Shown in pieces: positions 42,001 through 45,000 of a DNA stretch of 48,521 nt (within the stretch, counting starts at the first letter, position 1; every line of letters starts with the position of its first letter). Made by a program: the position numbers. Source of the stretch: a virus (Duplodnaviria; Heunggongvirae; Uroviricota; Caudoviricetes); IMG/VR virus record IMGVR_UViG_2511231131_000009, positions 1 through 48,521 of that record; one strand, written 5' to 3'.

Positions 42001-45000
42001 ACTATCGATCTTGGCAACAACGAATCTCTGGTATGCGGCGTGTTTCCCAACCAAGACGGCACGTTCACCGCGATGACGTATACCAAAAGCAAAACGTTTA
42101 AAACCGAATCTGGCGCGCGTCGCTGGTTAGCAAGAAACTCTGACTAATGAAATCTGGTAATTAAGGAATCCTCCACGGGGGGGAGTGGTGCACACGCGCC
42201 GGACACAAGCAAGCATCCGGCATGCTCTTTAACAATCTGGATATCCATAACAGTAAAAATCTACAGATTGCCGTTCAGTTTTCTGGCCAACTCTTCAAGA
42301 GATGGAGGCGATACGTAATCCGGATTTTTATTCATAAGAAACTGATTTTCACAGTACAGGCACCTGCTTTTATGAAAAAATTCATATTCTCTAACCGGGA
42401 ATGGCTGAAGTATCGATACTATCTTTTGTCCAAAACATTTTGGACAAAGATGCATGATTATGCTGCCGCCGTTCACGGTTACCTCCTTCGAGTACACAAA
42501 AGTTCCCGACTCAAGTTGGCTAAGGATATAACCTTCCGTCTGAGCCTCAAAGTTTTCAAATTCTGCAATTTTAGCTTTGAGAGAAGCATTTATTTCTTGA
42601 TAAGTGCCCACCAGCTCAACGAGAGACACGCATTCGCGCTGAATAGATGCAAGCTTTGAGTTCAGTTCACCAATAGCCGCATTTACTTCAGCTTGAGTTT
42701 TTGCCTCGTTCATTAGTTTTGCAATCTGGGCGGTTTCACGAATAGCCGTCATTGCTGCCGTTAATTCAGCGATCACATTCAATACTCTTATTGTTGTTGG
42801 GGATATCCAGATTAACAAGATCCTTGTTGTTGGGGAATAACGGGGACCACCTCGCCTGACGTGGTAAAAAGCAGGCACACAACACGAAAGCACACGGCGA
42901 GGTTGCTGGTTCATAGATAGCCTATCGTTAAATTTTCGTCGACCGTGCGCTTCCGGTTGTGGCAATCCGCGAAATGGCGCGGCGGTAAGTATGGCTGGGG
43001 TTTCCTCCATTGCTCCAGAAAATGCACCGGGTTGTCAGGTTGACCATACGCTTAAGTGACAACCCCGCTACAACGCCCTCTGTTATCAATTTTCTGGTGA
43101 CATTTGGCGGTATCAGTTTTACTCCGTGACTGCTCTGCCGCCCTTTTTAAAGTGAATTTTGTGATGCGGTGAATGCGGCTAAGCGCACGCGGAACAGTTA
43201 AAACCAAAAACAGTGTTATGGGTGGATTCTCTGTATCCGGCGTTAATTGTTAACTGGTTAACGTCACCTGGAGGCACCAGGCACTGCATCACAAAATTCA
43301 TTGTTGAGGACGCGATAATGGAAACGTTATTACCAAACGTTAATACGTCTGAAGGTTGTTTTGATATTGGTGTTCTGCTCAGTAATAAAGCGTTTACTGA
43401 GGATGCCATTAATATGCGGAAATATGAGCCTTATCTGCTCAATGATAATTCCATACTTTCCCGAATTGCTCTTCTTGAACTTGGTATTTTCGGAGAACAG
43501 CAGTGACCTCAGCATTTGCACTGGTGATGACCGTTTTTCTTATAACGGGTGAGCCGCAGAATGTAATTACCGGAATTTATGACAGTAAGTCATCCTGCAT
43601 TCAGGTAAGGGACGAACAAAAAATCCCCGGTGAATGCCTCCCGTTAAAAAAAGTGTCGCTGAACCTGAATAACGAAATACCGGCTGGATAACCCTCCAGC
43701 CATATTAACGCCATACCAACGGATTAAAAATACCAGCAATGGCAGGAATTTGTTCATCCTTAAAATGGTTATGAGGTTTATCAATGAACGCTGATAAAGA
43801 AGAAATTGCACTATATTACGAAGCCAAAAATGACAAAGTCAGAAAACGCCTTGGGATTAAAGGTGGTTTTTACTGGCGCACAGCAAAAAAATTATCGGTT
43901 GCAATATCACGCGGTGTTGCTGCAATGGACGATGCCGGATTTGACGAAGAGGATTTTAAAAAACCCATCCGCGTCCATTTACCCGTTGTGAATGACCTTC
44001 CACCGGAAGGTGTGTTTGATACTGAATTCTGCAACCGATACGAAAAAGGCGGAGAAGATGGTATCACAATGATACTTATCGCGCCCTCTGTTCCGGACAA
44101 ACCAGCCAGTACTGACAATACCAACGTCAACGGCGAAGACATGGCTAAGATTGAGGAGAATATGCTTCTTCCGGTTTCAGGTCAGATTCTGCCTGTTCGC
44201 TGGCTGGCGCAACACAACAGCGAAAAACCGGTCACGCACGTTTCACTGGACAAACTGCGCGCATTACATAACGCACAGGATGAAAAACTTCCCGCCGTTA
44301 CCGCGCTGGCCATCTCAAATAAAGCAGTGCAACTCGAACCGCTGGAGATTCGGGATTTGTACAAACTGGTGCGAGACACTGACAAAGTTTTCCCCGCCCC
44401 CGTAAATTCGGACCTGGGACTGATGACCTCTTTTATCGAAGCATACCTGGGCGCTGACTACACCGATCGCGGTCTGCTTACAAAAGAGTGGATGAAAGGA
44501 AATAGTGTTTCACGCATCAGCCGCACGCCATCCGGCGCTAACGCTGGCGGCGGCATTCTTACCGATCGCGGCGAAGGTTTTGTCCACGATGATGCGTCAG
44601 TGGCGCGTGACGTAGCCACTGGCGTACTGGCCCGTTCAATGGACGTGGATATTTATAACCTTCATCCCGCACACGCTAAACGCATTGAGGAAATTATCGC
44701 TGAAAATAAACCGCCATTTACTGTGTTTTTCAGCAAATTCATCACCATGCCGGGCCACAAGGATTACTCCCGCGCCATCGTGGTTGCGTCCGTGAAAGAA
44801 GCACCAATTGGTATAGAGGCTACTCCCCACCGTGTCACCGAATACCTGAATAAGGTGCTGACTGAAACCGATCATGCCACCCCTGATCCGGAAATCGTGG
44901 ATATTGCCTGTGGCCGCTCCTCTGCCCCGATGCCGCAGCGTGTAACAAAAGAAGGAAAACAGGATGATGAAGAAAAACCGCAGCCATCTGGCGCAATGGC

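Follow-up and report, generated by a model that had tools for sequence, protein, structure and literature searches.

A probable diverged Rip1-family gene on a sieB-type moron cassette, antisense in a DicF/DicB prophage operon

The DNA stretch analysed here, a virus record of 48,521 nucleotides (nt) assigned to Caudoviricetes (IMG/VR record IMGVR_UViG_2511231131_000009, hereafter the window), carries on its minus strand, against the direction of a lambdoid early-left operon, a small gene whose product is very probably a diverged member of the Rip1 ("ring interacting pore 1") family, judging from its sequence and modelled fold; it was previously unannotated as such. According to a review, Rip1 is a prophage protein, encoded between the terminase genes of a Pseudomonas prophage, which protects against superinfection and is not toxic by itself (PMC13434031). 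Mutations that allow phages to escape are reported there to affect the portal in the case of Pseudomonas phages or the small terminase in the case of Escherichia coli phages. In the structure obtained by cryo-electron microscopy, 12 Rip1 monomers surround an 11-mer small-terminase ring, the C-terminal half touching the ring and the N-terminal part forming an amphipathic helical structure, and the complex is reported to release dye from liposomes and to make holes in cells (PMC13434031). This account of the mechanism follows the review's summary of Patel et al. 2026 (Nature 651:1060) and the title of PDB entry 9oox; it is consistent with a meeting report and with a preprint from 2026.

Pseudomonas phage JBD30 and its D3112/DMS3-like relatives encode gp30, a moron giving phage resistance, which has been listed, with reference to Tsao 2018, as blocking phage genome injection (PMC11445458); the triggers reported for it in the review are portal proteins (PMC13434031). 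The HkaP protein of HK620, present also in HK630 and HK629, is uncharacterised; 'putative superinfection exclusion protein' is its long-standing annotation. A membrane protein with N-terminal transmembrane helices, SieB of lambda and P22 (PF14163), is likewise the product of an abortive-infection/exclusion gene that is expressed from the prophage and has an antisense orientation within the early-left operon. Self-immunity in the SieB system involves an internal Esc start and the antisense RNA sas. In P22, sas is reported to act in cis, as an RNA of 105 nt, to shut off the synthesis of SieB (PMC12197685). The genes surrounding the antisense gene of the window have their counterpart in the dicA-ydfABC-dicF-dicB-ydfD region of the Qin prophage of E. 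coli K-12.

Set beside these systems, the locus is best filed as a genuine gene, a diverged Rip1-family member on a sieB-type moron cassette, antisense in a DicF/DicB operon:

42261 to 42776, minus strand: rip1-like gene, 171 amino acids (aa), GTG start (Prokaryotic Genome Annotation Pipeline (PGAP) coding sequence WP_000559929.1; phrog_1244; homologues)

The gene, whose end is at 42261, runs against its plus-strand neighbours, in agreement with the original prediction, which had described an opposite-strand open reading frame (ORF) of 163 aa starting from an ATG (MTAIRE) with a weak ribosome-binding site. The start was placed too far downstream there. Because the N-terminus MIAEL is kept across homologues, being near-universal in sequences from Escherichia, Salmonella, Citrobacter, Klebsiella, Enterobacter, Edwardsiella, Arsenophonus and others, the start is assigned to the GTG at 42776, eight codons upstream of the ATG. 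In a set of 29 distinct upstream sequences, 24 lead into a GTG start, and the Shine-Dalgarno sequence AAGAG, 8 nt 5' of it (42785-42789), is nearly invariant, so that the concern about a weak ribosome-binding site is removed; the in-frame ATG at codon 9 shows no sign of use. The maximal (mechanical) ORF of 249 aa was rejected, since the match to phrog_1244 begins only at its residue 84 and the extension is not conserved.

PGAP names the product 'hypothetical protein', and phrog_1244, which matches it with E=1e-57, is listed in PHROGs as of 'unknown function'. Homologues in the databases number 109, and the Rip1 family as a whole extends to 3333 representatives of 50%-identity clusters at E<=1e-3, with members mostly of 145-180 aa. 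A plus-strand ORF of 145 aa (42222-42659) overlaps the antisense gene, and one might suppose that this ORF, or a non-coding spacer, is the real feature and the antisense frame spurious. Practically no credence can be given to this, as it is already refuted by the homology (the phrog_1244 match, the 109 homologues and the 3333 family representatives) and by a confident fold which superposes on a solved structure; the plus-strand ORF was set aside because all homology lies in the minus-strand frame.

The homology and structure prediction proposed at the outset as a check both lead to Rip1. A profile of 34 homologues matched HK446 Rip1 (PDB 9oox, chain L) with E=7.1e-24 over residues 6-152, while the pairwise BLASTP comparison gave 27% identity (E=5e-13). 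The AlphaFold2 model built from the same 34 homologues has a mean confidence (pLDDT) of 91.4 and consists of two long N-terminal helices, 3-23 and 28-79, which bear out the predicted coiled-coil N-terminus, followed by a beta domain (84-150). In a Foldseek search of the PDB only two matches were obtained at E<=0.001, both of them Rip1 chains of 9oox, the complex with the T6 small terminase; the best one (9oox_M) has E=5.3e-7, probability 1.00, TMt 0.72 and 28% identity. The C-terminal Cys4 motif noticed earlier (CPKC...CLYC; C111, C114, C139 and C142) is invariant in 34 of 34 homologues, and C49 is nearly so. These four cysteines together with Q46, L66, Y83, V94 and Y95 are invariant among the antisense protein, HK446 Rip1, HK620 HkaP and JBD30 gp30, and we infer from the sequences that the Cys-x2-Cys ... 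Cys-x2-Cys motif is a family-defining trait of Rip1. No hydrophobic stretch of transmembrane grade was found in the antisense protein (maximum Kyte-Doolittle value, KD19, of 1.13), and its N-terminal stretch is amphipathic, with a hydrophobic moment of 0.40-0.44 at residues 7-30, similar to that of HK446 Rip1.

The same architecture, long helices followed by a Cys4 domain, also recalls Chlamydia CT398, and the protein might accordingly be viewed as a coiled-coil and zinc-ribbon regulator or adaptor, binding proteins or nucleic acid and having no membrane activity. Such a role is improbable: the CT398 match is at 10% identity and owed to the long helices, the resemblance is architectural only, CT398 is not among the best 50 Foldseek matches listed, and the antisense protein has no Pfam zinc-ribbon or DUF164 match, while its sequence homology to Rip1 is highly significant. 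Membership in the CT398/DUF164-type proteins was rejected, as nothing specific beyond generic helices was found. Nor is the protein related to SieB: it has no PF14163 match at E<=1 and falls into PHROG 1244, not into 1301 or 6399.

Comparison with HK446 Rip1 shows the same family by profile and fold, the Cys4 motif, the amphipathic N-terminus and a similar length (164 vs 171 aa), and both genes lie antisense in a lambdoid early-left operon behind the same sieB-type block. Apart from the low sequence identity, they differ in location, the HK446 gene being next to N in a lambda-type PL operon and that of the window between ydfA and the DicF gene in an operon of the DicA/Qin type, and the window gene has a GTG start, a C-terminal tail (153-171) and a 13-nt inverted repeat, the last of which HK446 is without. 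More distant relatives were sought in phage genomes by tblastn, which found HK620 hkaP (29%, E=1e-12), the HK446 gene (27%) and gp30 of Pseudomonas phages JBD30, DMS3 and D3112 (30%). HkaP belongs to the same family, and its gene, which lies in antisense orientation between cIII and N, is likewise preceded by the sieB-type block; the protein falls into a different sub-clade, nearer to HK446 Rip1. JBD30 gp30 (BLASTP, 30% identity over 153 residues, E=7e-20) has the same conserved residues and is likewise antisense to its flanking genes; unlike the window gene, it resides in a Mu-like transposable phage, between the small and large terminase genes, and has no sieB-type module.

The module in question lies directly upstream of the GTG and consists of the following elements:

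42777 to 42884, minus strand: sieB-type 5' module (putative promoter and leader), 108 bp; conserved upstream DNA, alignment with lambda and P22

42847 to 42876, minus strand: core block GCCTG..CCAC..CAGGC..GGTGG; alignment of upstream regions

42824 to 42835 and 42791 to 42802, minus strand: direct repeats CCCCAACAACAA; alignment of upstream regions

42832 to 42837, minus strand: putative -35-like element TTCCCC; alignment with lambda and P22

42809 to 42814, minus strand: putative -10 element TAATCT, TGn-extended; alignment with P22

About 108 bp upstream of the gene are kept at the DNA level among homologues whose proteins are just 27-60% identical. The conservation begins sharply at GCCTG(N)CTTTT..CCAC.TCAGGC..GGTGG and continues through two (T)CCCCAACAACAA repeats and a TAnnnT hexamer to the Shine-Dalgarno sequence. 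The module aligns with the regions upstream of sieB in lambda (NC_001416, ~34397-34481) and P22 (AF527608, ~29653-29757), and the 'P sieB' annotation of the P22 record aligns with window positions 42809-42840. By the P22 alignment the -35 region would overlap the first CCCC repeat, and the second repeat would lie in the short leader; the positions of the -35, -10 and Shine-Dalgarno elements are a reading of the lambda and P22 alignment, not an experimental mapping. A promoter and terminator scan gave no more sites than in shuffled sequences and none at the gene, hence the promoter assignment rests on homology to P22 PsieB. A structured RNA in the module was also considered and rejected: single-sequence folds were no better than those of shuffles (z -0.36 and +0.72), RNAalifold gave 10 pairs with no compensatory change, and no Rfam match was found in the module. 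The Edwardsiella module shows one apparent compensatory pair (CCAC/GTGG to CCGC/GCGG), too little for a conserved fold.

A scan of IMG/VR with the 31-nt core revealed at least 120 loci. A rip1-like ORF stands behind the module in 10 of the 114 listed matches with enough downstream sequence. Among the matches listed, 97 ORFs behind the module have 50 aa or more, and BLAST groups them into at least 32 clusters of unrelated cargos. True SieB (Pfam, 3e-25) is among these, two of the clusters are rip1-like, and many are unknowns, which include phrog_5286, 3311, 8894 and 3983, a 106-aa membrane protein and zinc-ribbon proteins of 76-81 aa. The cargos are swapped at the start codon, and Shigella phage SfIV, which has the backbone of PhiR49_1, carries the same module with a different cargo. 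Since the module is common to SieB and to unrelated cargos, the rip1-like gene can be said to occupy the 'sieB slot' and to use the expression signals of that slot, and the module may be, judging from these sequences, a generic defence-gene slot of lambdoid phages. One further locus (IMGVR_UViG_2675903675_000003) encodes, 101 nt after the module block, a 136-aa protein with a coiled coil and a Cys4 motif; as it matches phrog_1244 with only 2.9e-22, it is taken as a more divergent Rip1-like clade.

By analogy with the characterised Rip1, the protein would most likely act in the lysogen as an abortive-infection pore-former, triggered by the small-terminase or portal rings of superinfecting phages. 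This is in line with the original prediction, where an opposite-strand accessory gene at this position was thought likely to serve superinfection exclusion or abortive infection, a view now supported by both the Rip1 homology and the sieB-type module. Given the sieB-type promoter and leader that come with the cassette, transcription of the gene is expected in the lysogen. It would run against the early-left operon (ydfA-DicF-dicB-ydfD-exonuclease), which itself would presumably be repressed there, by analogy with DicA in Qin. The protein alone would be harmless, as is characterised Rip1. When a superinfecting phage, at a late stage, makes ring-shaped oligomers of small terminase or portal, these may act as the trigger: the C-terminal zinc-ribbon beta domain would dock round the phage ring, some 12 copies would assemble, and their N-terminal amphipathic helices would form a membrane pore, permeabilising or lysing the cell before progeny mature, which would amount to abortive infection.

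A Rip1-family protein might instead act early, as a classical superinfection exclusion factor which blocks genome entry and makes no late pore. The listing of JBD30 gp30, 30% identical to the window protein, among factors that block genome injection (PMC11445458) and the annotation of HK620 hkaP both speak for this, but the later structure places Rip1 around a small-terminase ring (PDB 9oox title; PMC13434031), the reported escape mutations fall in portal and small terminase, both of them late proteins (PMC13434031), and the antisense protein has neither a transmembrane segment nor a signal peptide that would place it at the site of entry. Early exclusion is therefore unlikely.

Several points weigh against reading the gene as a Rip1-type pore-former. 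Its identity to any characterised Rip1 is just 27-30%, and for this reason the specificity of the trigger, and even the mode of action, could differ. The C-terminal tail (153-171, with a predicted helix at 160-167) is missing from HK446 Rip1. The antisense protein is not covered by any model in Pfam, NCBIfam or PADLOC 2023, where the only matches were coiled-coil noise and BrxA at 0.047, hence there is no independent curated family assignment. The predicted promoter has a poor -35 element. Moreover, one must bear in mind that the mechanism of Rip1 itself is taken from secondary sources (the review and a PDB title), and that the evidence for the rip1-like gene is that of sequence, model and context, from which transcription, oligomer and phenotype are inferred.

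The extent of the mobile unit follows from comparison with other prophages:

42224 to 42884, no strand assigned: mobile cassette, 661 bp (gene, 5' module and 37 bp of 3' flank); antisense insertion between ydfA and dicF

42234 to 42246, no strand assigned: inverted repeat AATCTGGATATCC, 3' copy; found by repeat search, directly after the stop codon

42801 to 42813, no strand assigned: inverted repeat, 5' copy (GGATATCCAGATT on the plus strand); overlaps the putative -10 element and the predicted start-site region

The prophages of PhiR49_1 and strain CRE10, with unrelated backbones carrying a cI/LexA-type repressor and yfdP-yfdT genes, show 93.5% identity to the window over exactly 42224-42884 and to nothing else nearby, and this defines the unit as a 661-bp cassette. 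The complementary picture is obtained from BLAST against K-12 Qin, where 41924-42140 matches ydfA (93%), 42157-42220 matches the sequence directly after ydfC, and 42867-43412 corresponds to a stretch that starts before dicF and reaches into dicB (92%); from these three segments it follows that ydfB and ydfC are missing and 42221-42866 is inserted. The insert had been put at 1.4 kb (42261-43691) and described as AT-rich. The true insert is 661 bp, the other ~800 bp being Qin-type backbone, and the AT excess exists but is mild, with a G+C content of 44.2% for 42261-43691 vs 51.0% for the window, at the 15th percentile of same-sized windows.

The AATCTGGATATCC repeat, perfect over 13 nt, flanks the gene in the MIAEL subfamily. 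A perfect core of 12-14 nt is retained where the proteins are just 48-61% identical, and 0 of 50 shuffles reach it; the repeat was not found at the HK446, HK620 and Edwardsiella homologues or at other cargos. It could be an operator, a site of pairing between the 5' and 3' ends of the mRNA or a recombination site.

The gene is oriented opposite to the surrounding phage operon in every context examined. In CRE10 and PhiR49_1 it is directly downstream of the cI-type repressor gene, in HK620 and HK446 between cIII and N, in JBD30 between the small and large terminase genes, in an Edwardsiella prophage between the exonuclease VIII/RecT genes and N, and in an Arsenophonus prophage between lysis and terminase genes. 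The 2.5 kb around the gene match the chromosome of E. coli O55:H7 strain DEC5D at 100% identity, and by coordinate mapping the DEC5D stretch matching the window is a lambdoid prophage adjoining tRNA-Ser and mtfA. Among complete E. coli genomes the gene occurs in 653 of 5426 (12%), with 286 records at >=99% identity. In an O157:H7 prophage at potC (strain FRIK2533, NZ_CP015842.1, 1573339-1580854) the order is RacR, DUF1391, the rip1-like gene, a truncated exonuclease gene, xis and int. The cassette of this RacR-type prophage is 99.6% identical, and DicF, dicB and the ydfD-like gene are not annotated there; the cassette persists in O157:H7 while the division-inhibitor genes appear to have been lost.

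These contexts also bear on the possibility that the cassette is mainly regulatory, convergent transcription from the sieB-type promoter dampening read-through into DicF/dicB and thereby shielding the lysogen, with the protein of secondary importance. Its position between the promoter side of the operon (ydfA) and DicF/dicB and its opposite orientation would suit such a role. Nevertheless, the same cassette is found in backbones without DicF or dicB, and the protein is conserved down to ~26% identity, with invariant cysteines and a confident fold, which shows selection on the protein and leaves a mainly regulatory cassette highly improbable. A protein-coding defence cassette with Rip1-like function remains the preferred reading of the locus.

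The operon into which the cassette is inserted comprises the following genes:

41394 to 41801, plus strand: DicA-like helix-turn-helix repressor (HTH_3, 2.2e-15; PGAP coding sequence; dicA position in Qin; mechanical ORF from 41343)

41995 to 42147, plus strand: ydfA-like gene (DUF1391), first operon gene after the repressor (PF07151, 4.3e-30; 93% to K-12 ydfA DNA)

43092 to 43143, plus strand: DicF small RNA (Rfam RF00039, 77 bits vs gathering threshold 48, E=1.8e-16, full length 1-52)

43318 to 43506, plus strand: dicB, cell-division inhibitor, 62 aa (PF05358, 5.7e-37; PGAP name dicB)

43503 to 43691, plus strand: DUF1482/ydfD-like small protein, 62 aa (PF07358, 2.8e-15; position of ydfD, 'lysis protein', in K-12 Qin)

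43784 to 46201, plus strand: exonuclease, 805 aa (PF06630, 1.8e-24, residues 56-187; PF16473, 1.1e-60, residues 623-795)

DicF of the Qin prophage is known to inhibit ftsZ expression. With DicF and DicB encoded downstream of a DicA-type repressor and ydfA, the locus is a Qin-type dicBF operon, and ydfA, DicF, dicB and the ydfD-like gene follow each other in the same order as in K-12 Qin, the segments 41924-42140 and 42867-43412 (from before DicF to the middle of dicB) being 92-93% identical at the DNA level. The DicF gene, 207 bp beyond the rip1-like cassette, belongs to the stretch that shares 92% identity with K-12 Qin, whose dicF carries an annotation. DicF of the window was annotated neither by PGAP, in the identical DEC5D record, nor in the original prediction. 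The two small plus-strand ORFs which the latter had placed after the antisense gene do exist, as dicB and the DUF1482/ydfD-like gene, and are part of the Qin backbone rather than of the insert. Unlike K-12 Qin, the window has no ydfB or ydfC and carries the 661-bp rip1-like cassette antisense upstream of DicF, and its exonuclease gene is intact, the K-12 counterpart ydfE being a pseudogene disrupted by IS2. The neighbour previously taken for recE is not canonical RecE: the protein is a fusion of a partial Exonuc_VIII domain, an acidic low-complexity middle part and a C-terminal Rv2179c-like 3'-5' exonuclease domain. Taken as a whole, the earlier observation holds as regards the existence of the gene and required correction in the details of start, extent and neighbours. 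A sub-threshold Rfam match to STnc100 (34.7 bits vs gathering threshold 47, E=4.6e-5) was obtained for 43141-43350 on the plus strand, across the DicF-dicB spacer and into the beginning of dicB; this stretch may be a conserved leader of dicB.

Elsewhere in the window, the small terminase of the resident prophage is encoded at 21446-21955, minus strand. PADLOC matched two adjacent genes on the minus strand (35363-37097) to the Rosmer defence system, namely RmrT (5.5e-25; 36447-37097) and RmrA (6.2e-105; 35363-36466), the latter with a helix-turn-helix and an M78 peptidase; PGAP names the two products 'hypothetical' and 'HTH domain-containing'. A 319-aa SIR2-like protein is encoded at 37790-38749, minus strand (Pfam SIR2_2, 8.6e-6, with weak PADLOC SIR2 and PDC-S21 matches), where the AT content is highest at this end of the window (31-43% G+C), adjoining hokD (37263-37418), and it may be another defence gene. 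Near the lysis region, an IS3-family element, ISEc31 (28213-29426), lies between partial genes (DUF1737, DUF6645), and because several pseudogenes are annotated near it, the prophage may be defective.

A broader, tentative proposal, which we consider possible without favouring it, is that the ~100-bp sieB-type module is a universal 'plug-in' site of enterobacterial temperate phages that gives any cargo lysogen-specific expression, the cargo being silenced in a sas-like manner by early-left transcription at induction; such silencing is suggested by the antisense position of the module inside the early-left operon. If this were true, the plug-in cargos would comprise SieB, Rip1-like proteins and at least 25 other families, as yet uncharacterised, and the uncharacterised ones would form a ready catalogue of new defence genes; sas-like silencing would make the resident phage immune to its own Rip1, and the subfamily-specific AATCTGGATATCC repeat would be an added control or recombination element.

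Whatever the fate of that proposal, the sieB-type 5' module can serve as a simple sequence tag by which many more candidate defence or exclusion genes may be collected from lambdoid phages. The Rip1 assignment predicts a testable phage-resistance phenotype in pathogens, including O55:H7 and O157:H7, carriers making up 12% of complete E. coli genomes. The presence of a defence gene inside an operon with two cell-division inhibitors, DicF and DicB, raises the question of how an induced prophage would avoid triggering its own pore-former. By analogy with P22, silencing of the sas type by early-left transcription on induction would be an attractive route to such self-immunity.

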